DNA of 15,025 nt from an uncultured Candidatus Bathyarchaeia archaeon (lineage in GTDB: Archaea; Thermoproteota; Bathyarchaeia; Bathyarchaeales; Bathycorpusculaceae), in the NCBI GenBank assembly GCA_964450845.1, contig CAYVGZ010000039.1, positions 1-15,025 of the forward strand. Direction: 5' to 3'. Every line of letters starts with the position of its first letter. The first letter of the stretch is position 1. Made by a program: the position numbers and the translations under genes. Positions 1 through 14,906 of the stretch are shown in pieces. The notes beneath the pieces are model-generated. The model did not search any database. It saw nothing but the letters and a program-made list of their open reading frames with translations, and was not told where the DNA came from.

Positions 1-49
1 AGCAGAAGAAGGTGTTGGCAAGATAACGATATAAATAATATTGGCAAGG

Positions 50-145
50 TATTTAGAGCCCCAGCGTTACCGATATATCGGCAAACTGTTACACTTTTAA
101 CTTTCTATACATTTTAATGTGGCATACCGTTTTTTGGGTAACTGC
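50..145 (+). repeat. Diverged ~95-bp intergenic repeat, copy 1 (copy 2 at 8403-8498); candidate small structured RNA
   Basis: tattta(g)agcccc(g)agcgttaccgata...caaactg...attttaa...ttttttgg(g)tRactgc aligns with 8403-8498 at roughly 70% identity by eye. GCGTTACC (64-71) can pair with GGTAAC-T-GC (137-145). Confidence 0.65.
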
Positions 146-226
146 GTTAAACTACGCACTGCACATACTAAATGTTTTTGAGCAACACAAATTGTGAAGA
201 AGACAGAAAAAGTCAAACTGGACCCC

Positions 227-269
227 AACTTAAGGGGATGAAAACTTAGGGGGTTAAGTTCTTGGGGAT
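227..269. repeat. Three short G-rich direct repeats at 16-bp period
   Basis: Cores cttaagggg (229), cttaggggg (245) and cttggggat (261) are exactly 16 nt apart. The first two are preceded by aa. Confidence 0.45.
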
Positions 270-403
270 CTTGTCCACTAAATCTCACCCCCTTTAGCAT
301 AGCCGCTCTCACTAAGGAAAAAGAGCTGTTGCAGGATTGTGTTTGCTAATAGCGAATATTTATCTAAACAATCGAACACTGAAGCAAGTTATTATTGTAT
401 AAG

Positions 404-411
404 TTTATATA
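404..411 (+). promoter_or_regulatory. Archaeal TATA box for the wHTH gene
   Basis: TTTATATA about 50 nt upstream of ATG 461. Confidence 0.5.
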
Positions 412-460
412 ATAGTCTGCCCATATAACACTTAGCAAAATCTAAAAAGATGATAAAAAC

Positions 461-724
461 ATGACAACAAAGGTAATTCACGAACCGCAACTCGACACCA
501 TACTTATGGTTGAAAAAGCTATCAGAGAAGCCGAATCATACCCCACCAAGAAACAGCTTCTGCAAAGCCTTCCAAAACAAATCCAGTATCAAACCTTCAA
601 CCGCATACTCGAATACCTCGAAAGCTCCAACAAAATCGCCATCGATGGACGCAGAATAATATGGGTATTCCCAGACAACCCAAAACTGAAAAAACTACTC
701 GAAACAAGCGTCAAACTTCGATAA
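461..724 (+). CDS. Small winged helix-turn-helix protein (87 aa), putative antitoxin/regulator
   Basis: Three helices (LDTILMVEKAIREA, TKKQLLQSL, YQTFNRILEYLESSN) followed by a beta-wing (KIAIDGRRIIWV). Adjacent to a RelE-like gene. Confidence 0.75.
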   Translation: MTTKVIHEPQLDTILMVEKAIREAESYPTKKQLLQSLPKQIQYQTFNRILEYLESSNKIAIDGRRIIWVFPDNPKLKKLLETSVKLR

Positions 725-734
725 ACTCAAAAGC

Positions 735-1082
735 CTAACCGTAACCAAATCTTTCCTCATACTTCTTATGATCTAAAATCTCCAAAACAACAACAGCAAC
801 ACCCGATTCATCAGCAACAAGCGTATAAATCAAACGAGTCCTGGAATCCAAATTAAACTTGTATAGGTTGTTAACCCCATACTTCTGAATATAATACTTG
901 GGAAACTTGCGTTTCTCAATCCGTTGCCCAGCAAACATATTCCCTTTCAACACATCCAATCCCGAATTAACAATCTTCAAGAGATAACTACCTTCCTTCA
1001 AAGAATTAATGAAAACCGCAGCTTCCCTACTCGCCTTAACGCAGGAAGGCTTCCTCGACATGACCGCACTCTCACTCTTCAA
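735..1082 (-). CDS. RelE/ParE-superfamily-like protein (putative toxin); start TTG 1082 or ATG 1061
   Basis: ~110 aa, basic, with RelE-like C-terminal strands LYKFNLDSRTRLIYTL...VVVLEILDHKKYEERFGY. GGTGA precedes TTG 1082, but the TATA position better fits ATG 1061. Confidence 0.65.
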   Translation of the reverse strand: MKSESAVMSRKPSCVKASREAAVFINSLKEGSYLLKIVNSGLDVLKGNMFAGQRIEKRKFPKYYIQKYGVNNLYKFNLDSRTRLIYTLVADESGVAVVVLEILDHKKYEERFGYG

Positions 1083-1093
1083 AGTTTTTCACC

Positions 1094-1107
1094 TTATAAG
1101 CTTATAA
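1094..1107. promoter_or_regulatory. Perfect 14-bp palindrome TTATAAGCTTATAA (double TATA-like site) upstream of the RelE-like gene
   Basis: The sequence equals its own reverse complement and contains TTATAA twice. Confidence 0.5.
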
Positions 1108-1188
1108 CATATTGCCTTATTTTCTCGCAAACAAAAATCTCGAAAGCACCCGAAAAATCCAAAAGACAGTAAAGAACACCTAAAAAAT

Positions 1189-1250
1189 AAAAAAAGGATT
1201 TGCAGGAGTTTTCGCCATTACTTCCAGCGTACAAGATTCCGCTCCGCCCA
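1189..1250 (-). repeat. Conserved integrase-downstream element, copy A
   Basis: 1196-1219 matches 3879-3902 at 22/24 nt. It shares the terminal ccgccca and the A-run (U-tract on the minus strand). Confidence 0.75.
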
Positions 1251-1289
1251 CCTAAAACACAAACCGAACCCTGACAAGTTTTGTAAAAG

Positions 1290-1370
1290 TCATTCTATTT
1301 CCCTGAACATTTTAGTGCCGTTGTAGTTGCAGACATGTTAGAAGCCGACGGTAATCATTTTCTTGTTTTA
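1290..1370 (-). pseudogene. Decayed C-terminal remnant of a tyrosine recombinase/integrase
   Basis: Minus frame reads *NKKMITVGF*HVCNYNGTKMFREIE*. It is homologous at DNA and protein level to 3970-4050, and TAA and CAT are single changes from GAA (E) and TAT (Y). Confidence 0.55.
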
Positions 1371-1396
1371 GACATCAGAGTTGGTTGTGCTTGTTA

Positions 1397-1480
1397 CTAT
1401 GGCTTGAGTAGTTTTCGCTTGTGTGCTGCCATTGCAGTTGCGAGTGCAATTAATACGAGGAGCATCGATGACCATGACAA
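1397..1480 (-). pseudogene. Orphan C-terminal TM anchor plus basic tail of a PEF-CTERM-type surface protein
   Basis: Reads LSWSSMLLVLIALATAMAAHKRKLLKP* (stop 1397-1399). No credible start or N-terminal domain lies upstream. Confidence 0.5.
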
Positions 1481-1519
1481 ATACAGAATAATTAATAAAC
1501 AATAATCGTTAGATTTCTG

Positions 1520-3868
1520 GTGGGAATATCTATGTACAGGAATCTATTGAAAACGAGGTTCATTATGATCATGCTTGCATTTTTGTTGTTCGCTTCATCA
1601 TCTCTATTTTCAACAGCAAAGGCTGCACCTGCCGAAAATGGCGAGTGGATCGCTTATCCGTTTGTTTACCCCACAGTAGGAAACATATACTCTGCCTGCG
1701 GAGAAGGCTGCATTGGCTGCGCAAAACCACTGTCTGACTCGATCTTATTCTTCGACATAAACAAATCAGCTTGGACTGAACTCGAATTCGATAGCCAACA
1801 GACCATTCGTGACCTGAAAGCCGAAGGACACGTGGTCTTTGCTTATACTGACGAGTTTCTGATAGGCTACAGCGCTTTCACATGTGATTATGACGTGATA
1901 CGATATGATGGTTTGTTACTGGTTCCTACTGGTTATAATCCGAGTTATGGCTGTGGAAGCAATCTGGCTTTCTTTGTTACGAATGAAACAATGTATGTAT
2001 TTGACGCTAAGCTGGGGCGTTGGCAGGAATATGACTACGGTTTGCCTATCGACTACTCAGGTTCGTATTACATAACAAGAGATGATTATGTTTGGGCACT
2101 CATGTACCGTGGAACTTCTGGCGAGAAACAACCAAAAAACGTTGTTTACAGCCTTCACACGCACAGCTTCAACCAGCTTGAAAACGGGTGTACTTTATCA
2201 GATGGATATTTACATCACGGGTTTGCCGGATATTATGCCCACGACGCTGAAAACTACACACTTATAGGTTACAGTGCCTACACAAACGAATTTGACATAG
2301 TTCAAGTGACCGATCAGGGTTACCTCTGTTCGAGTGTTCCGCCATGGGATTTGAAAGCTGACGAGATCACAGTGTATGCACTAAGCTTTAGAAAGGTAAT
2401 AGAAGTAGGCGTGCTTGTACGCGGCGAGTTCTATGGTTATGACACACGCCAAGGTACGTGGTCTCATACAACCGTAGACTTTGACTATGAGAACGGAGAA
2501 AGATACAGTGGAAGCTGGCAGCATGGCGGACAGTTCGCAATTGACTTCTCAATACTGCCGGGCGAAATATACAAATTCATAATTTACTCGGGAATCACAG
2601 GTCAATTCTCGATCGTATCACCTGGTCTGATTTATAATAGCGTTACCAGTTCCACTCTGTGCGGTGGTAAGGTCTTCGTTGTCTATGACATCGATACTGC
2701 ATGGGGATATAGTCTCGTGACAGAACAAGGTTCAATAATTTCCCTTGATAAACCAGACACAGACTTTTATTCTTTCGGGGACGATTTTTGCGCCTTAGGA
2801 AGAGACAGCACAGAATCCAACATAACGACCATGTACATCTACAATAGCGAAAACAACAACTGGACAACTATAGATTTGGCAAAAGTATTGTACAGCATGC
2901 AGTGTTCCAACAGTGAACACGTCTTCGCATACAGCTCATACGAAAGCCCAATTAGAGAAACAGTTTTCTACTCATCGTTTCTGGACAAGTATCTAAAATG
3001 CGAGTTTCCAGTAAATAGCTCTGTTTCCGTGGAAGCTAAATACAATCTTGCATGGGCCCGCTCAAGCAATATGTCATATCTTTTTGACGCCATGAGGGGG
3101 ATGATCTACGCGTTTGATTTCATGTTCACCACAAACGGTTTAGCCAACTTCGCCACTTGCTTTTTTGACGCTAAAACAAAAACTCTATACGGTTACAGCG
3201 TCCTTTCAGGAAAATGGACAAACCTAACGATTTCAGACACACCTTATACATGCGAAGCAAAGGGGTTCATCGGTCTAATCTCCAGCAATATCGACACAAC
3301 ATACTACAGCAGATATTACGCTTTCAATGGCCTCGAAGATAGTTGGGTCGAACTTGTTCCTTCAGGAATATATAAAGGACACAAAATTGGCGAGAAAACT
3401 GCTTTAGTAATCAGGTCAGACATGCTTTATGCCTTTGACCCAAATGGACACGTAGGCACATACAACTATCTGGTAGAGCATGAAGGAAACTTCTATCCCT
3501 TGTCATTATTCACAAACTCAACGATTTCCAACTTCAGTTTTAACCAGTCAACAACAGAGATAAGCTTCAACGTAACGGGACAAGACGGCACAATAGGCTT
3601 CTGCAACATAACACTCCCTAACACTCTGGTTCAAAATCTCTGGCAAGGCAACCCCACAATTCTCGTCGATGGAGAGCAGCCACTACAGATCAGCAGTTGG
3701 ACTGACGGAAATTACACCTACATCTATTTCACCTATGTTCACTCCGAGCACAAAGTAGTTATAGTTCCAGAGCTTTCACATGCCGTCCTTACATCAGCCT
3801 TTCTACTGATAACGCTTTCAGCAGTATTCGTTTGCAGGAAAAACCGTCTTCACAACAATTATGTGTAA
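1520..3868 (+). CDS. Secreted multi-blade beta-propeller-like surface protein with C-terminal module and PEF-CTERM-like anchor (likely start ATG 1532)
   Basis: Signal peptide ending AKA-A. About 14 degenerate ~40-aa repeats (hhhY/FDxxxxxW). C-terminal NSTISNFSFN...VTG.DGT.GFCNITLP...YIYFTY.HS module, then VPEL, TM helix and RKNR. GGTGG lies just upstream of ATG 1532. Confidence 0.85.
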   Translation: MGISMYRNLLKTRFIMIMLAFLLFASSSLFSTAKAAPAENGEWIAYPFVYPTVGNIYSACGEGCIGCAKPLSDSILFFDINKSAWTELEFDSQQTIRDLKAEGHVVFAYTDEFLIGYSAFTCDYDVIRYDGLLLVPTGYNPSYGCGSNLAFFVTNETMYVFDAKLGRWQEYDYGLPIDYSGSYYITRDDYVWALMYRGTSGEKQPKNVVYSLHTHSFNQLENGCTLSDGYLHHGFAGYYAHDAENYTLIGYSAYTNEFDIVQVTDQGYLCSSVPPWDLKADEITVYALSFRKVIEVGVLVRGEFYGYDTRQGTWSHTTVDFDYENGERYSGSWQHGGQFAIDFSILPGEIYKFIIYSGITGQFSIVSPGLIYNSVTSSTLCGGKVFVVYDIDTAWGYSLVTEQGSIISLDKPDTDFYSFGDDFCALGRDSTESNITTMYIYNSENNNWTTIDLAKVLYSMQCSNSEHVFAYSSYESPIRETVFYSSFLDKYLKCEFPVNSSVSVEAKYNLAWARSSNMSYLFDAMRGMIYAFDFMFTTNGLANFATCFFDAKTKTLYGYSVLSGKWTNLTISDTPYTCEAKGFIGLISSNIDTTYYSRYYAFNGLEDSWVELVPSGIYKGHKIGEKTALVIRSDMLYAFDPNGHVGTYNYLVEHEGNFYPLSLFTNSTISNFSFNQSTTEISFNVTGQDGTIGFCNITLPNTLVQNLWQGNPTILVDGEQPLQISSWTDGNYTYIYFTYVHSEHKVVIVPELSHAVLTSAFLLITLSAVFVCRKNRLHNNYV

Positions 3869-3871
3869 GGG

Positions 3872-3930
3872 AAAAAAGGGATTTGCGGGAGATTTCGCCA
3901 TTTTCTGCGAATATAGGGCAACCCCGCCCA
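3872..3930 (-). repeat. Conserved integrase-downstream element, copy B
   Basis: 3878-3927 equals 9850-9899 at 46/50 nt. The minus strand can form hairpins followed by U6. Confidence 0.9.
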
Positions 3931-3969
3931 GTTTTTACTGACTCCGCTTAGTTTTTTATGCAGTTGTCC

Positions 3970-4050
3970 CTATTTTCGTTTTCTGAAGAAGAGCAGGTCG
4001 TCTTTTTGGCAGACGTATTCGAAGCCGGCTTCTATGAGTTGGCAGATTTC
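3970..4050 (-). pseudogene. C-terminal remnant of a tyrosine recombinase/integrase
   Basis: Minus frame reads EICQLIEAGFEYVCQKDDLLFFRKRK*. This matches the C-terminal signature I recall for Bathyarchaeia/Nitrososphaeria tyrosine integrases (LIEAGFEYV...FRKRK). No catalytic domain upstream. Confidence 0.7.
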
Positions 4051-4230
4051 TTGTTCTTCTCCAGCTTCTTCCTAAACATCTCATCCATATCAACCGGCGG
4101 ACATGCACGCCTATTCGCATCCAACACATAAAAAACCACGTCAACCAACTCCTCAGCAACCGCCTCTTCGCTTAACCCCTTCTTCCAAGCACCAGCCGCC
4201 TCACCCAACTCGATAAACGCAAAAAAGAAG
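4032..4230 (-). pseudogene. N-terminally truncated MazG-like nucleotide pyrophosphohydrolase
   Basis: LLF(+1 T)AFIELGEAAGAWKKGLSEEAVAEELVDVVFYVLDA...MDEMFRKKLEKNKK has the ExxE...EExxD acidic motifs. No in-frame start, and the 3' end overlaps the integrase remnant. Confidence 0.75.
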
Positions 4231-4383
4231 CCAGTGATAGAATAGCATGCGCTCTACAGTGCTAAGGCTGAGGAGAGAGGAAAATTATAGCAGAATGCTC
4301 TATCGATTGAATAGTTATCCACAAGTGTTATTAAGACACTGAGTGCAAAAGTCAATCGACGGATCGAAGAAGAGGCGATTTGA

Positions 4384-5559
4384 TTGAAGAGAGTCATGAT
4401 TGTCCTTATTGCTTCAGTTTTTCTGGCGTCATTAATGCTGTGCAGAAACGCGTCGGCGGCACTGCCTCCTCCACAGCTCAAGGCAAAATTCAGCAGTGTC
4501 ACTCCTGATATCGATGGAATCCTACGCAGTGCAGAATGGAATGATACAATAAAGTACGAGATCACCTTGACAAATGGAACTATTGACATTAGTGCTTGGC
4601 TTTACGTTAAACATAATTCGACGCACATTCACTTAGGCCTCTTAGTTTGGTCTTTTGAAAATCTGGATGAAGTATTAATCGCGTTTGACGAGGGAGACGA
4701 TGGGAGCCACGGGAGCGGAAGTCGAGACATCACTTTGACACCTTTGCAGGAGGACTTGAAGATTGTTACGAAAAACCATGAACTTTATGATGGTTACTTC
4801 AATGTGGTATGGTACTCAAAAAGCACTGAGATAGACTTCGACGCTGAGCTTATTCATGAAATAGAACACACCACGGCTTCTTGGGAGATTGAGTACTGGG
4901 AAGGCGTAGGATGGGTAGATGATCACAAAGAGTGCGAATTTTCAATTCCGTTCGTTGGCAATGATGCTGGAACAAGCGATGTGAGCGATTTGTCGTGCAA
5001 TGTGACAGATACAGTAGGCATAAAGCTCCAGCTATACTATCCTCCTTCTCAAAACAACTACTTTCCATCAGGCGACAAAACACAGGTTAGCACATACGCG
5101 GATCTTAGCTTTCCTGCACCTCTTATCGAAAGTTGCGGCTCCTCGGGGGTGGAAAAGAATAGCTTCAACTTGTATGAGGATGTGCGTGCAAATGGAGAGG
5201 GTTTCCTGCCTAACGCAACTTATGACTTCTACGTCGTGAATGACGTTGCAACTTGGATTAATGGTATGCCGATTCCGGCAAGGGTTTCTGGAACTGCAAC
5301 ATCAATCACTTCAGATTCTGACGGAGCTGTTTTGCCCATAACAGTGTGGAGCGATCCATCAACAGTTGGCGCGTATGACATGCTGGTTGACACGAACAAG
5401 AATGGTTTCTATGACGAGGGCGTAGATGCCTTGGACAGTAATGATGTAGAGGTTACGGCGGGCTTTGTGATTCCAGAATTTTCGGCACTCTCGATTTTGT
5501 TGCTGTTTCAGCTGGCAGTGTTTGCAGTACTGATCTTCGCCAAAAAGCACTATCACTAA
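4384..5559 (+). CDS. Secreted DOMON/CBM9-like domain surface protein with PEF-CTERM anchor
   Basis: TTG start after GAGGCG. Signal peptide, TPDIDGILRSAEW and DEVLIAFDEGDDG motifs, acidic C-terminal domain with LVDTNKNGFYDEGVDALD loop, then VIPEF, TM helix and KKH. Confidence 0.85.
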   Translation: MKRVMIVLIASVFLASLMLCRNASAALPPPQLKAKFSSVTPDIDGILRSAEWNDTIKYEITLTNGTIDISAWLYVKHNSTHIHLGLLVWSFENLDEVLIAFDEGDDGSHGSGSRDITLTPLQEDLKIVTKNHELYDGYFNVVWYSKSTEIDFDAELIHEIEHTTASWEIEYWEGVGWVDDHKECEFSIPFVGNDAGTSDVSDLSCNVTDTVGIKLQLYYPPSQNNYFPSGDKTQVSTYADLSFPAPLIESCGSSGVEKNSFNLYEDVRANGEGFLPNATYDFYVVNDVATWINGMPIPARVSGTATSITSDSDGAVLPITVWSDPSTVGAYDMLVDTNKNGFYDEGVDALDSNDVEVTAGFVIPEFSALSILLLFQLAVFAVLIFAKKHYH

Positions 5560-5898
5560 CCCTTCTTTTTCTGCAATTCCTCAATAACTGATTTCCAATT
5601 CAATGGCAACGCAATCATCTTTTATGTTACTGGCGGCAATGGCACCGCTGGTTTTTGCAGGCTCTGTATCCCAACAGCTTTGAATGCAACATACACGGTA
5701 TTTGTCAATGGTGCAGAAGTTCCATCTGACCTTCTATCATGTTCCAACAGCACACACAACTACTTATACTTCAACTATACTCACTCAACACAACAAGTAG
5801 TAATAATCACAGAGCTCCCATCAGCCACCATCCTACCACTATTCATAGCACTTTCCGCAATAGCCATTATCGCAACAAAGAAAAAATCTAAAAGATAA
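5560..5898 (+). pseudogene. Orphan C-terminal surface-protein module plus anchor (no start codon)
   Basis: Frame is open from the preceding TAA: NSSITDFQFNG...VTGGNGTAGFCRLCIP...NSTHNYLYFNYTHSTQQVVIITELPS, TM helix, KKKSKR*. Same module family as the C-terminus of 1520-3868, with PEF degenerated to TEL. Confidence 0.8.
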
Positions 5899-5986
5899 AA
5901 GCCAACTTCCAAACCCAAGTTTTACCCAGTCAAATGTCTTAAGTGCTTCACATCAAGCATTCACAAAACACCAAACTATAAAGAGG

Positions 5987-6013
5987 TAGGCTCCGAGCCT
6001 ATACTCGTAGGCT
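5987..6013. repeat. Overlapping inverted repeats TAGGCTC-C-GAGCCTA-tactcg-TAGGCT between convergent units
   Basis: Perfect 7-bp arms (5987-6001) plus a third TAGGCT box. Lies next to a minus-strand U-tract at about 6018-6022. Confidence 0.5.
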
Positions 6014-6045
6014 AAGCAAAAAGAGACAGTGGCTGGAGAGCCCCG

Positions 6046-8280
6046 CTAAAGAGGAGTGTGCTTCCTTCTTAAGACAAATGCAGCTGCCAGAGTTGCTATC
6101 ATGAACAGCGGCAAAATAAGTAACGCTTGAAATTCTGGAATTACAAAATCTTCCAACATCAACGTAATCTGCTTATTCTCTGTCATATCAATCGTTGCAT
6201 TTGCTGAATGTGTGGCATAGGTTGCTGTCACCGTGTAATTTCCATACGGATGTGCTCCTGTAGCGTTAGTCATAAGTTGAACCAAAATAAACTTGGCCCA
6301 GCCACCTGAATCTGCCAAATAGGAATATGCAACTGTCCCATTCTGATAGTTAACTGTCACGTTTGCATACGGAACATCGTCACTATTCATGTCTACTACA
6401 TGCACATTGAGATACCAGCAAACATAAGTCCTCGACTGATCGTGATTCTCACCATAGTTAGCCATCGAATTTATGGCCCACACCTCGGAGTTATCATAGG
6501 AATATGCATAGTTTGTTGAAGAATTGTATGCATAGAGCTTGGAATTTTGATATGTTATTACTGCATAAGTGACATTTACAGCGTAAGCCGAAACAACTGT
6601 CGAATCGTAGATATAAACGAAATGCAATGTCGAGTTAGATATTGTCGCGTTAGAGCTATTCTCAAGGCTCAGGCTCCAAAGATCGACGTACGAGTTTACG
6701 ACTGTGACGTTTGGTGCTTCGCCACCAACAGTAACCGTTACTGAACAGTTAAGTTTGAAATCCCAATAGCCAAAGTAACCCGGGTTAAGTCCATCAATAG
6801 AGCAGTTTATAGAGGCAGCATAAACAGTGATGTAACCTGAAATCGAGCAGTTGGAAATATATACGTCAGCGTCATCGCGACCGGTAAGAATGTCGATTGT
6901 GCAGTTGTGCGCTTCAAAGCTTGAATCATCATATATGTGAGTTGCGTAGGATGTTGAATCCCGCAAATTGAAGTTGGAAGTGCCGAAGGCATGAATGAAC
7001 TGGACAAAGGAATTTGAAACAGACACATAAGAATCATCAAAGGTGCGTAGCCAAATCGAACCTACTGTGTTGAGCATCTCTATTGAGCCTGTGCTGTTTC
7101 CATAAAGGCTCATGAACAGATCATAGCCATTTGTGCTTATGCTGGCGTTTTCTATTATCAGACGCGGGTTGCCATAAGCTGGATTGCGCAAAGTCAAATT
7201 AAATTGATGATCCTCAGACTGCGTGAAATTTACGTACGCATTTCTCAGAATCAGCGTGGCATTTTCTTCTACAATCATGCTCCCATTAATGTTAAAGGTT
7301 CCTTCAATAACATAGACGCCGTCGCCGCTGAGATGCAAGTCTCCAAGGTATAACGGACTTTTGCTGACAACCCACTCCACGCCATTCCAATGCAATATAA
7401 GCCCAAAATCGCCAACAGCCCAACCATCAAAAGCATCAACCATAAACACTGAAAAGAGGTAGCTGGTTGCGGGTTTTGTGACACTGTTCCATGTGGTTCC
7501 GTTGTAGTGAAGTATGTCTTGATCGCCCACTATCCAACCGTCAGTGGCGTTGAGCATAAACACTGACCTTAAAGTATGGGGAGTTGGGCTTGTAAAGTTA
7601 CTCCAAGCTGTGCCGTTCCAATGAATTATTGTTCCGTAAGAGCCTACGGCCCAGCCCTTAGTAGCGTTAACCATAAAGACTGAATGGATACCACTTGATG
7701 TTGGACTTGTAACTGATTTCCAAGCTGTGCCGTTCCAGCGTAATATGCCGTAGGCGCCGCTTACAGCCCAGCCGTCTGTGGCATTAACCATAAAAACTGA
7801 CTTCAGCCAATTTGACGTTGGACTTGTGACTATGCTCCATGCGGTGCCATTCCAACGAATTATAATTCCATTCCAACCAACTGCCCAGCCTTCAGTAGCA
7901 TTAATAATATACACTCCATAAAGGTTCTCAGAAGTTGGGCTTGCAACCTCACTCCAAGCAGTTCCATCCCAATGAATTGTGGTTCCCTCAGTACCAACTG
8001 CCCAGCCATCAGTAGCATTAACCATATGAATTGACATAAGATTACTCCCTGTTGGACTTGGCACTGTTCTCCAAGTAGCACCGTTCCAATGAAGTATAGT
8101 TTGGCCAACTGCCCAGCCATCGCTGGAGTCAAGCATAAAAACTGATCTCAAGTCTTTATCTGTCCAATCAAACGACATAGGCTCAAAACCAGACGTAGCC
8201 GCATACACACAAACTCTAACATTCATTCCAGCAGTAAACAACAAGCACAAAAAAAACGTTGCAAAGACCAAATTCTTCAT
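6046..8280 (-). CDS. Secreted surface glycoprotein: 7-blade YCF48/BNR-like beta-propeller, beta-helix-like region, Ig-like domain, PEF-CTERM anchor
   Basis: Signal peptide. Seven LxSVFMxNATDGWAVGxxGxIxHWNGTAWxxxxSPT repeats, a Ser/Asn-rich beta-helical region, about 30 NxS/T sequons, then VIPEF, TM helix and RRK. Confidence 0.9.
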   Translation of the reverse strand: MKNLVFATFFLCLLFTAGMNVRVCVYAATSGFEPMSFDWTDKDLRSVFMLDSSDGWAVGQTILHWNGATWRTVPSPTGSNLMSIHMVNATDGWAVGTEGTTIHWDGTAWSEVASPTSENLYGVYIINATEGWAVGWNGIIIRWNGTAWSIVTSPTSNWLKSVFMVNATDGWAVSGAYGILRWNGTAWKSVTSPTSSGIHSVFMVNATKGWAVGSYGTIIHWNGTAWSNFTSPTPHTLRSVFMLNATDGWIVGDQDILHYNGTTWNSVTKPATSYLFSVFMVDAFDGWAVGDFGLILHWNGVEWVVSKSPLYLGDLHLSGDGVYVIEGTFNINGSMIVEENATLILRNAYVNFTQSEDHQFNLTLRNPAYGNPRLIIENASISTNGYDLFMSLYGNSTGSIEMLNTVGSIWLRTFDDSYVSVSNSFVQFIHAFGTSNFNLRDSTSYATHIYDDSSFEAHNCTIDILTGRDDADVYISNCSISGYITVYAASINCSIDGLNPGYFGYWDFKLNCSVTVTVGGEAPNVTVVNSYVDLWSLSLENSSNATISNSTLHFVYIYDSTVVSAYAVNVTYAVITYQNSKLYAYNSSTNYAYSYDNSEVWAINSMANYGENHDQSRTYVCWYLNVHVVDMNSDDVPYANVTVNYQNGTVAYSYLADSGGWAKFILVQLMTNATGAHPYGNYTVTATYATHSANATIDMTENKQITLMLEDFVIPEFQALLILPLFMIATLAAAFVLRRKHTPL
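7354..8160 (-). repeat. Intragenic ~117-bp tandem repeats (7 propeller blades)
   Basis: gttgg(a/g)cttg recurs at 7583, 7700, 7817, 7934 and 8051, an exact 117-nt period. Confidence 0.9.
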
Positions 8281-8312
8281 AGGGCATCGCTACCCTATTC
8301 TTCACACCAGCT

Positions 8313-8327
8313 TTTTATAATTTTCGA
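8313..8327 (-). promoter_or_regulatory. BRE plus TATA promoter of the 744-aa gene
   Basis: Minus strand reads CGAAAA-TTATAAAA about 33 nt upstream of ATG 8280. Confidence 0.7.
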
Positions 8328-8402
8328 AAAGCATTGACTGCAAACAATAGTCAGAACAGAGCTTTTTCAGAAGTATAACAACGATGCGATATATAGGTAG
8401 GC

Positions 8403-8498
8403 TATTTAAGCCCCGAGCGTTACCGATACGCACAGACAAACTGAATACTTTCAGTTTTTTATGAATTTTAACATAATATGCCCTTTTTTGGTGACTGC
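8403..8498 (+). repeat. Diverged ~95-bp intergenic repeat, copy 2; candidate small structured RNA
   Basis: Homologous to 50-145. Closing stem 8417-8426 with 8488-8498 and an internal perfect hairpin AAACTGAA-TACT-TTCAGTTT. Confidence 0.65.
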
Positions 8499-8573
8499 TC
8501 TCTAAGAATTCATCAATCTGGATAGCAATCTATCTAATACACTAAGAATCTAAAATAAGCTTGAAACATGAAA

Positions 8574-8608
8574 GTATGCCCACCCATACTTTGTATGGGT
8601 ACCCCTAC
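8574..8608. promoter_or_regulatory. Tandem pair of 16-bp imperfect palindromes (consensus GTATGGGTACCCATAC) downstream of the ATPase gene
   Basis: GTATGCCCACCCATAC (13/16), 3-nt spacer, GTATGGGTACCCCTAC (15/16). Confidence 0.8.
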
Positions 8609-8655
8609 TCCCGAATGCCTTCAACCATGTCTCAGCTTCAGTGACCAACAAATAA

Positions 8656-9751
8656 CTATTCAGGCAGAGGCTCCTCTCTAATGCCTTCGATCAAAAGCGC
8701 ATCAGAAATGGAATATTTACCATCAGTCTCAAATATGATTCCCATGTTAACCAGATTTCTGATAAGAGTTGAAACAGCATGGTTCGTTATTGACCGCGCC
8801 TCTTTCGTCTCAACCACAGACTTGATTTGAGACCAACTCGCTTCTCCTACCTTCATAACAAAATTGAGAATAACACCATAACGTCGGGATAGAGCAACAA
8901 TCTTCAAAACTTCTTCTCTCGCCAGTTTCCCAGCCTCAGAAGCAACTTCATCCACAAGCTCTCTTGAACATAGATTTCTATCTCGACACCTCACACCAAA
9001 CAGCGTCAGCCACCCTGGAACCCCGTCGAGCCTCTTAACGGCATACTCTAACACTTCAGAGCTTGGCTCCAGCTTAACCTGCTTAAACCCCGAAACAAGG
9101 AAGTCCTTTGCCATACTTGCAGAGAAATTTTTCATTTGAACTTGAACAAAATGCCTTCCGTACAAAGGAGAATCAGGCTGATCAAAACCCAAGAAAACAA
9201 ATAAGACTCCAACCTCTGAACCAGTTACCACGACCACAACGTTATGATAAGAATCAACAACATGCGCAAGAAAACGAAGCATCCACTTATCTCCACGAAT
9301 AACCTGAATTTCGTCAAATGCAATCACAAATTTTTTCTTCTTCTTTGCAGCCCAGCTATCGATCTCACCGAAAAGCTCAGCTAAATCCACTCCTGCCTTA
9401 CCCTGCTCAAAGCTCAACTCACTCCCAAGAACCGACACACCCTTTAGGTGTTTCAAAGCCTCAGAGAGATCAGAGAACAATTTTCGGTCAATCTGTCTAA
9501 ACGCTGCTTCCAGCCTCCGAACAATGTCAGCATAAGAAGGATTAAAAGGCAATCCACGCAAATCCAAAATCGCAAAGGGACAACCGCACTCAACCAAAGC
9601 AACATTGACAAAAGAAGTCTTTCCAGTCCGACGAAGACCGGTAACAACAATCAAAGGCGAGTAAGACAAAGCCTTAAAAAACTGCTCAAGCTCTTTCTCG
9701 CGATTATAAAGATCTTCTTTTTTTTGTCTTTGGACGGGGATCAAAATACAT
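8656..9751 (-). CDS. Archaeal AAA-type P-loop ATPase with C-terminal winged helix; natural start is frameshifted at an A8 run (possible pseudogene, phase-variable gene or sequence error)
   Basis: Walker A GLRRTGKTS, Walker B IAFDEIQ, C-terminal wHTH. ATG 9751 gives the family-typical MYFDPRPKTKK, which joins EDLYNREKELE only if one A of the run at 9718-9725 is removed (364 aa). Confidence 0.8.
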
Positions 9752-9786
9752 GTATAGGCACCCATACTGCGTATGCCTACCCATAC
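9752..9786. promoter_or_regulatory. Tandem pair of 16-bp imperfect palindromes directly abutting the ATPase start codon (putative operator)
   Basis: GTATAGGCACCCATAC (14/16), 3-nt spacer, GTATGCCTACCCATAC (14/16). Same 19-bp period as 8574-8608. Confidence 0.8.
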
Positions 9787-9840
9787 TAACAAAGTTTTCA
9801 ACATCACGCTACAATGCGTTAGGCAACAACATCAAGACTC

Positions 9841-9899
9841 AAAAAAGAGGGGATTTGCGGGAGCTTTCACCATTTTCTCCGAAAATAGGGCAACCCCGC
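9841..9899 (-). repeat. Conserved integrase-downstream element, copy C
   Basis: 46/50 identity to 3878-3927, with the same A-run on its left. No clear integrase remnant upstream. Confidence 0.9.
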
Positions 9900-9956
9900 A
9901 ACAAGCTGATATTTGACTTTGTCTGTTGGGTTATTTTTGTGTTTCCTTGTTGACAA

Positions 9957-11912
9957 ATGTTTTTACTGCGAAAACGGTTATTGAGAAGTAGGGTGAAAAT
10001 CGGTTTGTCTTCGTTAAGTGAGGCAATAAAACGAACCAGTGATGTGCTTAGGTTTGGTGCTTCAAAACAGGTTTTGGATTACGAGCAGCGGTTCTCATCA
10101 ATCAAAAATCTTTACGATGGTTTACTTTTAAATCTTATAAAGATGGATTTTGACTTTGAAGAGGCTTGCGTAACTGCACAAAAGTTTTTCGGGGCATCAA
10201 GTGTTCGTTTTGCGGGTATAGATGGCACAATGTATTCGCGGCCGCTGTTTGATTTGGTGATTTTCTTCGGCGGAGCTTATGCTTCAACTGGTACAATAAC
10301 TTTTTCGGAGAAGGACAAGCCCCTAGTTGAGTATGATGAAAGAACTGTTCAGCAAGGTGCAGGAATATCAAGCGTTGTGCCTGTTTACGTCAACGAGATT
10401 CCAGATATAGATCAGACGTTTTTTGATGTTGAGCAGCCTGGGGAAATCAGTTTAGGTAAGCCGCTGGTGGATGAAGCAATAATAAGTAATGCCACGATTG
10501 CGAATTGGATAATGACTTTCGCCGAGTATTATCTTGCCTATAAGCTTGCCACAGACTTAGAACAGAATGTACGTATTATTCTTTTGGATAGAAGTCTATC
10601 CATTGAGCGTGCAAGCCTCCTTTATGACACTTCAAAGTATGAATTATGGAAGGCGAAAAGCAGCATAATTGGGTATAAAATTGACAATGAGCCTATCGAT
10701 GTTAATGACTTAACTATTGCAAGACAATATGTTTGCAATGAGGCATTGGGTTTGCCGCCTCAAAGGGCAGATTATCTGCGTTATGCAATAATTGAATTAG
10801 TCAGGCGAAAAGGAGCTTTAACTGAGAAGCAGATTTTGGCCGAATTTGGGATAACTGACGAGAAAAGAACCAGAAGAGCAGGGCGATACCTTAAACATTT
10901 GATTAAGCGGGGTGTTCTTGTCGAGGAAAATGAGAATTATAGTTTGGTTCCTAAGTATAATACGACTTGGGAACGCATCAAAAAGCTTGTTATAAGTTTG
11001 GGTGATCGGTTCTTTTTTACGAAAACATCGGGGACGGAAACGGCAAATTTGATGAAAATTTTGAAGGAGGGAAAAGAGAGTTGGCTTACAACTCTTGACA
11101 TTGCTTTTCTTACGCTTTTCACGTTGCACATGCTTGTGGAGGAATGTTGGAAAAGACAAATTTTGCTTGTAGGCGTCACGAAGGACACTGCTGCAAGGGA
11201 TTTTAAGAGGCAATTGATTCCAATAATGTACAATGAAGGCTTATTGAAAGCGGCTATTTCGCAGGAAGAGTTTGAAAAATTGCCGAACACTGATCGTATG
11301 ATACTGCAGTCTGCCAGCATTTTCAACAACGAAAAAATTAAGCTTCCGTGGAGTATAGTCGAATATGATTCAGCTTTCAGAACTATGGTTTCTGATAGGC
11401 AGGGTCGCAGGGGTTATGTTTCTGGGGCGATAAAGAACAAGATTGGCTTAGAGAAGACTTTTTTGAAGACGTATGTGCAGTTAAGCCAAGCCAAAACGGA
11501 TTCGATGTTGAGGAGTAATGTGTTGTTGATAGATCGTCTTGTTTATCCGCAGTATGATTATAGGCGTGAAAGTGTTGTGGAGTTTTGGAATGAACTGAGT
11601 GATGGTACGAGAGAGCCTGTTGAAGCGATTTTGTTTGTGGATAAAAGGGTTCCGAATAAGCTGCAAAACTTGGTTATGACTGTTTTGGCTGCTATGGTTC
11701 CGTCTAGTATTCCTGAAGCTTTCGGTCACAATAAGCCCTTGTTTATTGCGGATAAGATTGCTAAGTGGAATTACAGTCAATTCAAGTGTGTTGTGGATAC
11801 TACTGCGGATTGGATATTGAATAACCATAAATTGAGAAGGTTCATATTTTATATGAGCACGTTTAGGGAGAGGAGGACTGCAATTGAAGCTGCAAGAAGA
11901 GAAGGCATTTAA
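9957..11912 (+). CDS. nurA: NurA-family nuclease with internal winged-helix insertion (likely start TTG 10005)
   Basis: Motifs FAGIDGT, FAEYYLA, ILLDRSL, VGVTKD and GHNKPLFIADKIAK. wHTH-like segment at aa ~271-335. GGTGA at 9992-9996 lies 8 nt before TTG 10005. Confidence 0.8.
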   Translation: MFLLRKRLLRSRVKIGLSSLSEAIKRTSDVLRFGASKQVLDYEQRFSSIKNLYDGLLLNLIKMDFDFEEACVTAQKFFGASSVRFAGIDGTMYSRPLFDLVIFFGGAYASTGTITFSEKDKPLVEYDERTVQQGAGISSVVPVYVNEIPDIDQTFFDVEQPGEISLGKPLVDEAIISNATIANWIMTFAEYYLAYKLATDLEQNVRIILLDRSLSIERASLLYDTSKYELWKAKSSIIGYKIDNEPIDVNDLTIARQYVCNEALGLPPQRADYLRYAIIELVRRKGALTEKQILAEFGITDEKRTRRAGRYLKHLIKRGVLVEENENYSLVPKYNTTWERIKKLVISLGDRFFFTKTSGTETANLMKILKEGKESWLTTLDIAFLTLFTLHMLVEECWKRQILLVGVTKDTAARDFKRQLIPIMYNEGLLKAAISQEEFEKLPNTDRMILQSASIFNNEKIKLPWSIVEYDSAFRTMVSDRQGRRGYVSGAIKNKIGLEKTFLKTYVQLSQAKTDSMLRSNVLLIDRLVYPQYDYRRESVVEFWNELSDGTREPVEAILFVDKRVPNKLQNLVMTVLAAMVPSSIPEAFGHNKPLFIADKIAKWNYSQFKCVVDTTADWILNNHKLRRFIFYMSTFRERRTAIEAARREGI

Positions 11913-12067
11913 TGGTTATGTGCGTGTTCTGTTGCTGTTTGCGGTTACTATCCCCCTCTATATATACCTTGAATTTATGGTTAGAACTTAAGCGTGGATT
12001 TAGCGGAAATAGCTTAAATTGAAAAAGCAGTCTATACACAATCATAAATCCAGAGGCGAACAATCCT

Positions 12068-13954
12068 TTGAATACGCAAAAAGAAACCACACTAAACGAG
12101 TTCTGCTTCACGAATTTTGACGACAGGTTCCACGCGAGACTTGCTGCTGTTATTCCAAGATTTTTTGGTGGAGCAGAGGAAACTAAGCTTTCGGGCACGA
12201 GTGCCCGTTATCAGTGTCGCGCTAAAGTTGAGTATCAGAAGGATTTGATGGGGCTTTTGGAAGAGGGCATGCTTTTGGCTGTTAAGAACTTTAAGCAGGC
12301 AATGGGGCAGGGTGAGGAGAGGTTTACGCTTATGGAGATTAGTCGAGTTTGGCCTGAGCATTTTGGTTTGCGTGGGTTGTCTGATCATGGTTATTATCCT
12401 ATGCAGTTTGAGATTATTGAGCAGTCTGAAGTGGATTGGCAGACGGATGATAAGTCTACTATGATGATTCAGATAGACGCCATTCCAATAAACTACGATT
12501 TAATCCTAAACAAACAGTGCGAGTTCGAGTTTGTTAAGGGCTTTTCGTATCCAGTTGTAGGAAGCTCCGCCTTTTTGCTGAATAGTGAAATGATAAATCG
12601 CATGTATAACCAGAAGATAGCCGAAAAGTTTGGCATAGACCCATCTAAAACTGTTGAAGATGCTAGGGCTGATCCGAGGCTTGGCTTAATTAAAATGTTT
12701 CAAGCAAGTAAAACAGTTATTCCTATCTATGTTGATTTTGAGAAGCTTGTTCGCTATCACTTCGGTGTTTTTGCTTTTACGGGTGGTGGAAAAAGCAATT
12801 TGATGTCGAACGTTCTTAGGCGAATTTTGGTGCATACTGACAACACGAAGGTTATAATTTTTGACATAAGCTGCGAATACATATTCCTAATGCTGGATAT
12901 GCTTGCTGACCCAGCGTTTTCGGCGAAGGTTGTTGTTGAGCATAGGATAGATTCGCTTGAACAGTTTTTCAACTCTGTTGTTAAGCCGAGGGAGTATGAG
13001 GCTGATGAGAGAATCAAGGCGGGATTACAGCGTATAATCGAGCAGGGTAAACTTGCCTATTACACGAGACCTAAGCAGAAGATTCCTACTTACAGTCAAT
13101 TTTCGGATGAGCTTGGTGCTCAGAGGAGAGATAGCGTAGATAAACCGCATTACATGAACGCTATTGACAAGATTCATGATGCTATTCTTGAGTATGCGGA
13201 AGAGCATGGTTTGAGCGAAAACCAAGAAGTGAGTGAAGATTTTATTGGATACATAGACCAGCTTGCCACGGAAACCATACAGCAGTTTAAGGTTCACGAA
13301 AAAAGTGGGTTGTATGCGTGGGCTACCACGAGAAGTGCAATCTTGGACATTATTAAAAAGAAACAGGAGAAAGAAAAGGAAGAAGTTGGTGGACTGACAG
13401 CTGAAAAAATCCGTGAATTATTGGAAGATAAAACGACAAGCCTTGTTTGTGTTTCAATTTCAGACCCGTTCATAATAAAGGACTTAGTCATCACTTTGAC
13501 GCAGGATTTACTTGTTCGGAGAAAGCGCAGATTCCAAGTTAAGCCCTACGTCTTGCTTGTTTTTGACGAGGCACAAGAGTTCGTTCCAAGTGGCGCAGGA
13601 GGAATTGATTCTAAATGTTCTGGGCATGTTGAAACTTTGCTCAGGCAGGGGAGAAAGTATGGTTTAGGCGTTTGCATAGCTACACAACGTATTGCCTACT
13701 TGAACACAAACGCTTTGCAGCAGCTGCACACGTATTTTGTTGGCACTTTGCCGCGCCCATATGATCGCACGCTTGTCAGCGATACGTTTATGATAGATAA
13801 GGGTATATTGGAGAAAACTTTGGAGTTTGCGCCGGGCGAGTGGCTTTTGTCAAGCTACATAGCTACTGGCATAGAAAACGTGCCCATATTCATAAAAGCA
13901 GATAACGCAGAAAACGAAATAGAAAAATACCTGAAAGAAAGCAGGTCAAAATGA
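12068..13954 (+). CDS. herA: HerA-like FtsK/HerA-family ATPase (N-terminal HAS-barrel-like domain plus motor domain)
   Basis: Walker A AFTGGGKSN, Walker B LLVFDEAQEF, LRQGRKYG arginine-finger motif, IATQR. GAGGCG before TTG 12068. Directly follows nurA. Confidence 0.85.
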   Translation: MNTQKETTLNEFCFTNFDDRFHARLAAVIPRFFGGAEETKLSGTSARYQCRAKVEYQKDLMGLLEEGMLLAVKNFKQAMGQGEERFTLMEISRVWPEHFGLRGLSDHGYYPMQFEIIEQSEVDWQTDDKSTMMIQIDAIPINYDLILNKQCEFEFVKGFSYPVVGSSAFLLNSEMINRMYNQKIAEKFGIDPSKTVEDARADPRLGLIKMFQASKTVIPIYVDFEKLVRYHFGVFAFTGGGKSNLMSNVLRRILVHTDNTKVIIFDISCEYIFLMLDMLADPAFSAKVVVEHRIDSLEQFFNSVVKPREYEADERIKAGLQRIIEQGKLAYYTRPKQKIPTYSQFSDELGAQRRDSVDKPHYMNAIDKIHDAILEYAEEHGLSENQEVSEDFIGYIDQLATETIQQFKVHEKSGLYAWATTRSAILDIIKKKQEKEKEEVGGLTAEKIRELLEDKTTSLVCVSISDPFIIKDLVITLTQDLLVRRKRRFQVKPYVLLVFDEAQEFVPSGAGGIDSKCSGHVETLLRQGRKYGLGVCIATQRIAYLNTNALQQLHTYFVGTLPRPYDRTLVSDTFMIDKGILEKTLEFAPGEWLLSSYIATGIENVPIFIKADNAENEIEKYLKESRSK

Positions 13955-14074
13955 TTTTCCGATTGTAAGAATATATCTAAGAAGAAAAGAGGAGCATGAA
14001 TGGTCTATCGGCACGCAAATAAGGTACGCTTACAGACATCCCACGCATCTCAATACGCAAACACAAAGAAGACG

Positions 14075-14710
14075 ATGGCTATGAATAGAAAAATGGTGTT
14101 ACTAATCGTTGCATCGATTATCATCGTTTCTTCGACTGTTGGAGTTTACTTGCTTACACAGGTGCGAGAAGCGACTAAACCCTCTTGGCTGAAAGTGGGC
14201 GCTTTCGTGACTTACGAGCAGTTCTTCGTGTGGACAGGGAACAACGCAACAGAGTACATGACGTGGAACATAACCAGACTAGAAAATGATTCCGTTGACC
14301 TGCACCTGATTTCCCACGGCGTGAACACATCTAGTGGAAACGTAGTCATAACAACGGGCGAGGTCAATTGGACGCTCAATGCAGCTACACGCGAGATACT
14401 CGGTGCCTCAGATTCAAACTACATTGGCGAAAAAAACCCATTCTGGATTGAAAAAGACGTCACTGCAGGGTCCACGATAGACATACTTTATGGCTCCAAC
14501 ACCATCAGCAAAAGTGAATCCATCCACGTTCTCGGACAACAACGAGACTGCTGGATCGTTGAGTATCAATGGCCTACGTCCACCATGAAGCGCTGGTACG
14601 ACAAACCTAGCGGGATTGTTCTCAAAATCCAAGTAGTCCTGTATCGCCAAGACATAATAATAGAGATTACAGAAACAGCAGTGCAAACCAACGTTAACCT
14701 AGAATCCTAG
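14075..14710 (+). CDS. N-terminally membrane-anchored/secreted hypothetical protein (ORF open from 14000; start probably 14075 or 14081)
   Basis: MNRK, hydrophobic helix, then a beta-rich domain with PSWLKVGAFVTYE and DCWIVE...WYDKPSGIVLK patterns seen in archaeal exported proteins. Confidence 0.7.
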   Translation: MAMNRKMVLLIVASIIIVSSTVGVYLLTQVREATKPSWLKVGAFVTYEQFFVWTGNNATEYMTWNITRLENDSVDLHLISHGVNTSSGNVVITTGEVNWTLNAATREILGASDSNYIGEKNPFWIEKDVTAGSTIDILYGSNTISKSESIHVLGQQRDCWIVEYQWPTSTMKRWYDKPSGIVLKIQVVLYRQDIIIEITETAVQTNVNLES

Positions 14711-14719
14711 TACACCAGA

Positions 14720-14788
14720 ACAGAGTTTGCAACCTACAAAACCTTCGCAGACTACAGCGACATCATGCCCTTCAGAAAACAGAAATAG
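14720..14788 (+). pseudogene. Possible third integrase C-terminal remnant
   Basis: Reads TEFATYKTFADYSDIMPFRKQK*. ttcagaaaacagaaatag differs at only 2 of 18 nt from the 3' end of the 3970-4050 remnant (ttcagaaaacgaaaatag). The upstream match is weak. Confidence 0.35.
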
Positions 14789-14906
14789 ATGAGAATACTA
14801 AAGTCCCAAACAACTTGGGAAAGGGTTTGGGGGTTCAATCTATTTATAAGGGAGTTCTAGTTTTTCCGAGAGCAACAGAACTGCTCATGAATTGCTAAGT
14901 GTGCAT

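Follow-up and report, generated by a model that had tools for sequence, protein, structure and literature searches.

The window analysed here is the whole of contig C39 (15,025 nt) of G000, a metagenome-assembled genome (MAG) of an uncultured Bathyarchaeia archaeon (1.64 Mb, 120 contigs, 93% complete). Its right-hand part carries a pair of host genes resembling NurA and HerA, and positions 1-9904 carry surface-protein and other genes punctuated by three copies of a short repeat element, two of which are preceded on the minus strand by the 3′ end of a tyrosine integrase gene (the tail). The segment 1-9904 is inserted DNA and very probably represents three or more degraded integrative elements lodged in tandem in the 5′ end of the host tRNA-Ser(GCU) gene, in which the tail-bearing modules would be attP-like seams between tandem elements, arranged in the order integrase end, spacer, core, element end.

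Copies of the repeat element, 56-65 nt long, were located by repeat search (family D4) at 1186-1250, 3868-3932 and 9840-9904, and an nhmmer profile recovered the same three (3868-3932, E 9.5e-18; 9840-9904, E 4.3e-17; 1185-1252, E 4e-14), with only partial forms elsewhere in G000 (C14:14558-14591 and C10:8556-8590). Read on the minus strand as AAAAACTGG-GCGGGGTTGCCCTA-(12 nt)-ATGGCGAAATCTCCCGCAAATCCC-TTTTTT, the element is bipartite, consisting of the first 14 nt of tRNA-Ser(GCU) followed by a 25-nt end motif and an oligo-T run. Its first 23 nt are identical to C83:58-80, where 9 nt precede the tRNA gene (full gene C83:67-155) and the other 14 nt form its start; in the window this identity covers 3914-3936. 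Intact copies of the 14-nt stub GCGGGGTTGCCCTA stand at 9886-9899 and 3914-3927, and a decayed one at 1234-1247. An integrase tail precedes two of the three copies, the third (9840-9904) having no tail upstream, and in both tails the distance between the stop codon (3970-3972 and 1290-1292) and position +1 of the tRNA stub in the element is exactly 42 nt; the two tails (1290-1370 and 3970-4071) align at the DNA level. Direct repeats of a tRNA segment bound the elements, as they do in a tRNA-targeting array. A first-pass annotation of the window had described a repeated module of integrase tail and element at a fixed spacing of about 40 nt, measured from its own element edge, together with a solitary element at 9841-9899, and both are real.

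The minus strand of 3970-4071 translates to EEAGEEQEICQLIEAGFEYVCQKDDLLFFRKRK and then a stop codon, the part adjoining the stop including EEQEICQLIEAGFEYVCQKDDLLFFRKRK, and matches a 48-position hidden Markov model (HMM) of integrase C-termini with an E-value of 1.7e-14; the decayed tail at 1302-1364 (minus strand) matches the same model with an E-value of 0.0027. One full-length relative is present in G000 (C11:654-2057, protein P0001), a 468-residue PF00589 protein with the R...HxxR...Y signature and an N-terminal Zn-ribbon that ends in EFIEAGFEYVRYDDKEQCPIYRKRK and the stop codon. Its nearest families are of the XerA/XerC type, all scoring below their cut-offs (XerA_Arch, 84.6 bits against a cut-off of 220), and XerA/XerC/XerD-type profile and structure matches end near residue 423-437 of 468, leaving the C-terminal extension unreached. 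Homologues were found in 24 of 24 searched genomes of the same family. All 31 aligned intact relatives terminate in the tail motif L[IL]E.GFEYVC....FRKRK, directly before the stop, and share a C-terminal extension of ~45 residues with the consensus DEFxxKVAxTxxEAxxLIExGFEYVCxxxGxKxFRKRK. The window tails are genuine tyrosine-integrase C-termini, as the first-pass annotation had read them from the motif; they represent the last ~25 codons of the gene and belong to the VCQKDGL.FFRKRK subtype. No integrase open reading frame (ORF) is present anywhere in the 15-kb contig, and the G000 assembly contains no intact integrase of the window-tail subtype, only the C11 gene, which has a different tail subtype, and a copy on C118 truncated by the contig end.

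The NurA-like/HerA-like pair beside the array (Pfam: DUF87/HerA, E 6.5e-15; NurA weak) is kept at 65-90% DNA identity in 18 of the 24 relatives searched. In G001, a member of the same genus, and in G008 and G010, NurA is immediately preceded by an intact, divergently oriented tRNA-Ser(GCU), and a short contig of G002 carries the 5′ part of the tRNA beside NurA before the contig ends. Aligned to the window, the relatives match it across the intergenic region and 14 nt into the tRNA, up to 9904/9905. Because this homology ends inside the tRNA gene, 1-9904 is inserted DNA, absent from the same site in the relatives, which retain the empty attB. The copy at 9840-9904 is attL, made up of the native upstream region, the 14-nt stub and the element end. 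The part of C83 beyond the tRNA is 90% identical to the distal flank of tRNA-Ser in G001, and this contig is read as the far flank with the reconstituted tRNA (attR side). The modules do mark junctions of separately acquired blocks, as the first-pass annotation had suggested. In the following list of features the naming of elements A, B and C follows the tandem-integration reading.

1-1185, minus strand: start of a third inserted block (element C), running off the contig, with a 115-residue ORF at 735-1082 (minus strand).
1186-1370, minus strand: older decayed tandem junction, with integrase stump 1293-1364 (HMM E 0.0027), stop 1290-1292, 42-nt spacer 1248-1289, decayed core GCGGAGCGGAATCT 1234-1247, end motif 1194-1218 and T-run.
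1253-3867: element B cargo, a 782-residue secreted protein and an anchor fragment.
Ending near 1397, minus strand: C-terminal fragment with a transmembrane (TM) plus basic anchor, element B.
1520-3868, plus strand: 782-residue secreted protein with a C-terminal PEL-TM-basic anchor, element B.
3868-3969, minus strand: tandem junction composed of the P arm of A, core and P′ arm of B, with 42-nt spacer 3928-3969 carrying a CATAAAAAAC box, stub 3914-3927, end motif 3877-3901 and T-run 3872-3877.
3970-4046, minus strand: element A integrase 3′ stump ending in ICQLIEAGFEYVCQKDDLLFFRKRK and the stop, fused at 4046/4047 to the truncated MazG-like gene.
3933-9839, minus strand: element A cargo, of five-part gene content.
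4032-4253, minus strand: truncated MazG-like ORF (weak Pfam MazG match, E 0.073), element A.
4254-4589, minus strand: 111-residue ORF, element A.
4384-5559, plus strand, with C-terminal anchor fragment 5570-5898: surface-protein gene broken near 5559, element A.
6046-8280, minus strand: 744-residue BNR/Ycf48-like repeat protein (weak propeller matches), element A.
8656-9807, minus strand: archaeal ATPase PF01637 with a winged helix-turn-helix (Pfam), element A.
9840-9904, minus strand: attL (B-core-P′), with tRNA-Ser 5′ stub GCGGGGTTGCCCTA 9886-9899, end motif 9849-9873 and T-run 9840-9848.
9905-13954, plus strand: host flank (B arm), with the native upstream region of tRNA-Ser 9905-9956, NurA-like gene 9957-11912 and HerA-like gene 12068-13954.
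13955-14831, plus strand: separate 877-nt insertion downstream of HerA relative to G001, with a 236-residue ORF 14000-14710 and a possible integrase stump 14720-14788.

Pieces of element A recur in other genera at 66-90% identity, and the homology with G073 (89%) ends exactly at the first base of the end motif, 9873. Element B has homologues in G005, G024, G043 and G023 at 70-76% DNA identity, its cargo having no match in Pfam or NCBIfam, and pieces of element C match other genera at 72-87% identity; the segment 1-1185 shows no homology to the tRNA-Ser/NurA loci of the relatives. The site has repeatedly taken up cargo, much of it genes for secreted or anchored proteins, as the first-pass annotation had proposed. 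The additional tail that it had suspected at 14720-14788 is plausible and unproven: the possible stump, ending in DIMPFRKQK and a stop, closes the 877-nt insertion and ends 43 nt before same-genus homology resumes at 14832, but it gives no match to the tail HMM at E<=1 and the left edge of the insertion carries no end motif. The segment 13955-14831 is only tentatively read as an integrated element with an integrase stump.

The same geometry is found across the family. In about 16 of 30 loci the integrase stop is followed, at a distance of 25-50 nt, by one end of a tRNA gene or fragment, and in the VCQKDGL.FFRKRK subtype the tRNA is co-oriented with its 5′ end toward the integrase. Two loci (L020 and L029) have the 42-nt spacing exactly, with a TTTAAAA or CATAAAAA TATA-like box at about -33 to -24. 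In G108 the order is integrase (residues 206-468), 43-nt gap and intact tRNA-Ser(GCU), and pseudogenised forms of the same order are found in G099 and G061. Spacers specific to tRNA-Ser, from five genomes, have CATAAAAAAC..GCGGAGTCAG..AAAAAC in common and resemble the native tRNA-Ser upstream region (CACAAAAATAACTCAGCAGAC). We infer that the tRNA promoter and leader are duplicated on the element, which would keep the displaced tRNA expressed; the fixed distance between stop and core would then exist because the spacer supplies the tRNA promoter. Both element ends are seen together in an intact 6.7-kb element of G010 (contig C1), which comprises core TCGTAAAWTCTAAAA, P′ motif, 6.3 kb of cargo, a 429-residue integrase, 46 nt and the core again, and a 2.85-kb mini-element on G000:C10 has both ends likewise around an integrase remnant of ~100 residues. 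Where an element is integrated singly, the tRNA comes after the integrase and the motif half stands at the opposite end of the element, whereas seams of tail, core and P′ motif like those of the window occur in G016 (L035, with a 286-residue integrase), in G006 (L086) and at L089. The expectation that intact integrases would end in the tail motif and carry the element 40 nt downstream therefore held in its first part only, since the element is not one unit placed after every integrase and its motif half lies at the other end. In the relatives the integrase gene adjoining the att site is intact when integrated; the window keeps stumps only.

These arrangements can be accommodated in a simple scheme. 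The P end of an element consists of a classical XerA-like tyrosine integrase gene followed, after ~42 nt, by a duplicate of the initial 14 nt of the tRNA, and the P′ end of the conserved 25-nt motif and then the oligo-T run. Crossover within the 14-nt core would integrate the element. The native promoter would then drive no more than a 14-nt tRNA stub followed by the motif and T-run (attL, 9840-9904), and the tRNA body would be joined to the spacer and stub of the element (attR, now on C83). Each further integration at the site would create an internal attP-like seam, and ordinary deletions would later have removed the integrase genes, leaving 3′ stumps. The spacer may serve as promoter for the displaced tRNA, the T-run may terminate transcripts of the stub, and the P′ motif may be a protein recognition site at the end of the element.

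The removal of integrase genes by deletion can be followed at one junction. Gene fragments abut both tails, as had been noted before: the anchor fragment ends near 1397, and the MazG-like ORF is fused to the other tail at 4046/4047. In five relatives the MazG-like gene (73-90% identity) continues as EKNK(K/E)RPYQYGEGHR and onward to its stop; the homology of the window ends at 4047, and the junction lies within an AAGAA(A) microhomology. As this microhomology junction cuts both genes, one deletion took the last ~14 MazG codons together with ~440 integrase codons. The tail is no defined part of a recombination site: among 117 tail-HMM matches in five genomes, open frames range from 17 to 748 residues, HMM starts are spread over positions 1-35, the lengths of integrase remnants form a continuum between about 16 and 470 residues, and truncation points show no single cluster. 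The window tails are deletion stumps, and by the refuting condition that the first-pass annotation had itself set, the pattern is that of simple decay.

C-terminal integrase fragments are abundant in the family (for example in G019, G077 and G023). About three quarters of the 117 tail-domain matches lie in open frames of <250 residues. Across 61 genomes there are ~540 matches, and of the 150 best tail matches about half fall in frames of <200 residues; serial replacement at att sites may account for this abundance, or some use of the ~45-residue C-terminal domain. Two more stumps in G000 (C68:100-384, ending in GFEYVCDMDNAKILRKCK and a stop, and C61:1-150, containing GFECICDMEDPKFFRK) lie ~40 nt from reverse-oriented tRNA 3′ ends; the C68 tRNA, which was missed by ARAGORN, is Leu-like and apparently has a non-canonical intron. 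Two tRNA-Ser-linked integrases of different genera, L215 (G108:C176, ~1240) and L212 (G061:C27, ~5650), share an in-frame stop at the same codon (context LL*[VI]G[FY]EYV, consensus E), one being TAA and the other TGA, which may be a coincidence or a recurrent removal of the FRKRK tail.

The end motif, TGGnGAnnTCnCCCGCAAAWYCCC (25 nt, then the T-run), is widespread in the lineage and adjoins attachment cores derived from tRNAs at over 100 Bathyarchaeia loci. Allowing one mismatch, ~90 matches were found in 36 of 61 family genomes against none for a reversed-pattern control, and the exact degenerate pattern occurs in at least 119 stretches of a species-level genome collection, ~95% of those listed being Bathyarchaeia/Bathyarchaeota MAGs. 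There were no matches in IMG/VR, on which ground a viral origin of the motif was rejected. When 80 distinct loci were compared, conservation was limited to the end motif and the following T-run (T4 or longer within <=4 nt of the motif in 118 of 127 copies), and in these listed loci the sequence 2-12 nt upstream was usually a tRNA fragment, most often the reverse complement of a 3′ end interrupted within the T-arm, and at some loci a 5′ stub of 14-22 nt; tRNA-Ser itself recurs beside the motif in L076 and L152. A tail lies within 260 nt upstream in only 7 of 122 motif copies, so that seams are the minority and most copies are plain attL sites. No conserved neighbour gene emerged from an all-against-all BLAST of the ORFs within 2.2 kb downstream at 57 loci, in which no family occurred in more than two loci, and a literature search on the motif sequence returned unrelated primers only. 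A role as a gene start (M-[AEV]-K-[ST]-P-A-N-P) was rejected, as every such ORF in G000 has 12-33 codons and 20% of 127 copies begin with C or T. Our best guess is that the motif is a protein recognition site at the element end followed by an oligo-T terminator; its conservation next to many different tRNA cores is the only feature that the integration scheme leaves without an explanation.

Other readings of the repeats have to be weighed against tandem integration. One reading, very improbable, takes the element (56-65 nt) for a structured small RNA of dispersed occurrence, or for a repeat resembling a miniature inverted-repeat transposable element, that lies near integrase remnants by chance. 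The element does end in a U-run, the motif holds an imperfect palindrome (GGnGAnnTCnCC), and the copy at 9840-9899 folds better than shuffled sequences (z -2.1), but the folds of the three copies differ, the other two are no better than shuffles (z -0.85 and +1.2), and Rfam gave no match to the element; inconsistent folding and the Rfam result led to rejection of a structured small RNA, and a covarying hairpin was rejected because Watson-Crick pairing at the variable pair of the palindrome is 0.34 against 0.40 expected (n=127). Moreover, the non-motif half varies with the targeted tRNA, and 9904/9905 is an insertion boundary. Hardly credible is the proposal that the tails are int(C) halves of SSV-type 'suicidal' integrases, which have attP within the gene and are split by integration, a type that the first-pass annotation had cited. 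Such splitting, with gene capture, is established in Sulfolobales and Thermococcales (PMC8371274, PMC7253208), and C-terminal integrase fragments are indeed very common in the family. The core, however, lies 42 nt downstream of the stop, outside the ORF, intact integrases stand beside intact tRNAs when integrated, the upstream side of the tails carries no tRNA sequence but in its place a deletion-truncated MazG-like gene, and the catalytic R...HxxR...Y residues and best matches are XerA/XerC-like.

It is unlikely, if less so, that the integrase-less blocks are still mobile, with tail, spacer, core and P′ motif forming a complete attP/attL/attR set that allows excision, shuffling and re-insertion in trans by a resident integrase, in the manner of cis-mobilisable elements (CIMEs) or loosely of an integron. 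Several observations favour residual mobility: the seam at 3914-4026 is 98% identical to an attR of G061, a member of another genus, in which an intact tRNA-Ser follows, against ~78% identity for the cargo common to both and a divergence of 20-30% in host genes from genus to genus; similar cargo (a BNR-repeat protein) lies between the same kinds of seam in G061; stump-only mini-elements of 0.9-2.9 kb recur; and cross-genus element homology ends exactly at the P′ motif. Against it stand the lack of an intact cognate-subtype integrase in the 93%-complete assembly, the absence of a fixed length among tail remnants, one junction being a plain microhomology deletion, and the visible decay of the copy at 1186-1370, its core included. 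No circular forms were found among 15 short motif-carrying contigs, none of which has terminal overlaps, and this counts against residual mobility and against tandem integration alike. Tandem integration faces further difficulties. The array is left open at position 1, where C39 ends; the ends of C39 and C83 do not overlap (k=21), and the number of elements and the physical linkage of the two contigs are deduced from synteny. The 57 nt upstream of the tRNA on C83 resemble a P-arm spacer, yet carry no recognisable tail. Finally, plain decay predicts less than the 98% identity of tail, spacer and core to G061 over 114 nt alongside BNR-repeat cargo of ~78%, and the conserved arm suggests recent exchange or constraint.

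A broader proposition, itself unlikely, is that the end motif and T-run (TGGnGAnnTCnCCCGCAAAWYCCC-T4+) form an undescribed Bathyarchaeia-wide recognition site by which one integrase family uses dozens of tRNA cores and which, with the tail-spacer arm, keeps integrase-less blocks mobilisable in trans. If this were true, tRNA-anchored arrays would be a lineage-specific platform for gene exchange rather than graveyards.

Under the tandem-integration reading, the array is an instance of archaeal gene uptake by tandem tRNA integration, an already known mechanism, and is not an integron. Tandem integration and gene capture at archaeal tRNA genes have been described (She et al. 2001/2002/2004, Redder et al. 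2009, as cited in PMC8371274), as have the integrated mobile genetic elements of Thaumarchaeota (PMC6563490). The window shares with these cases tyrosine-integrase elements in a tRNA gene, a duplicated short tRNA segment, pile-up at one site, loss of integrases and captured accessory genes bounded by att copies. It differs in its Bathyarchaeia host, in a 14-nt core at the tRNA 5′ end with an apparent promoter copy on the element, in the lineage-wide 25-nt end motif adjoining the core, and, compared with the SSV-type cases in which gene capture was first described, in an integrase that stays intact on integration. SSV-type (type I) integrases have attP within the ORF and are split into int(N) and int(C) (PMC7253208), whereas here the core follows the stop by 42 nt. 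The family is closer to the classical type II pNOB8/XerA-like integrases (PMC8371274), with an unsplit gene, attP outside the ORF and R...HxxR...Y in PF00589, and is set apart from them by the N-terminal Zn-ribbon, the ~45-residue FRKRK-ending extension and scores far below the family cut-offs. Bacterial accretion, CIMEs and tandem islands (reviewed in PMC5704250 and PMC5812530) and tandems of phages with integrative and conjugative elements (PMC13651849) are also comparable: successive integration at one att site gives attP-like or hybrid seams, and integrase-less derivatives remain flanked by att sites. Mobilisation in trans has been shown for these bacterial systems, whereas the window has att-like flanks for which mobilisation is only a possibility. 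The integron-like array proposed in the first-pass annotation was not upheld. Mobile integrons do resemble the window in being arrays of acquired genes separated by recombination sites and built by a tyrosine recombinase, but their platform consists of intI, attI and Pc, whereas the window array has no adjacent integrase or common promoter and is bounded by the NurA/HerA host genes. Integron cassettes are mostly single promoterless ORFs that end in attC sites with an imperfect palindrome, whereas the blocks here hold 1-5 genes on both strands over 0.9-6 kb, and their sites are tRNA-derived cores with an end motif, showing neither covariation nor a consistent fold; no site of the folded attC type is present. 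The homology-driven recombination of the pTN3 type that had also been invoked is not needed to explain the window.

A puzzling repeat is in this way explained by an ordinary mechanism, with comparatively verified 5′-end tRNA targeting in Bathyarchaeia, a group for which we know of no cultured genetic system. The combination of tail motif, ~42-nt spacer and end motif would allow integrated elements and their cargo to be delimited automatically in Bathyarchaeia MAGs; in the window, secreted or anchored proteins, an ATPase and a MazG-like gene make up most of that cargo. Contig breaks at loci of this kind are explained by the repeated att sites, and the end motif, together with a tail-spacer arm that is 98% identical between genera, offers through its conservation a concrete target for work on recombination.

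Some minor observations concern the flank and the cargo. In G002, a genome of the same genus (C127:2500-2675, L055), the NurA-adjacent tRNA-Ser ceases to follow the tRNA sequence immediately past the anticodon loop, 13 nt before the end of the contig, which could reflect an intron or a different insertion with a longer core. A second tRNA-Ser(GCU) of G000 is among 16 tRNA genes within 18 kb (C1:168746-186356) on the 196.6-kb contig C1. The fragment 5570-5898 (plus strand) encodes the same C-terminal domain of ~100 residues with PEL/TM/basic anchor as the 782-residue ORF 1520-3868, and probably belongs with ORF 4384-5559, broken near 5559; the stretch 5570-5846 has counterparts in at least 10 other genomes (70-75% identity), which makes it a C-terminal module common among the surface proteins of Bathyarchaeia. 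ORF 6046-8280 contains seven tandem repeats of 117 nt (39 residues) at 7351-8151 (minus strand). An intergenic direct repeat of ~100 nt at 38-137 and 8391-8491 (71-79% identical) contains a CGATATATCGG-type palindrome and recurs in other genera at 78-86% identity (G005:C39:508-641, G085:C11:69723-69829 and G020:C8:58172-58249).

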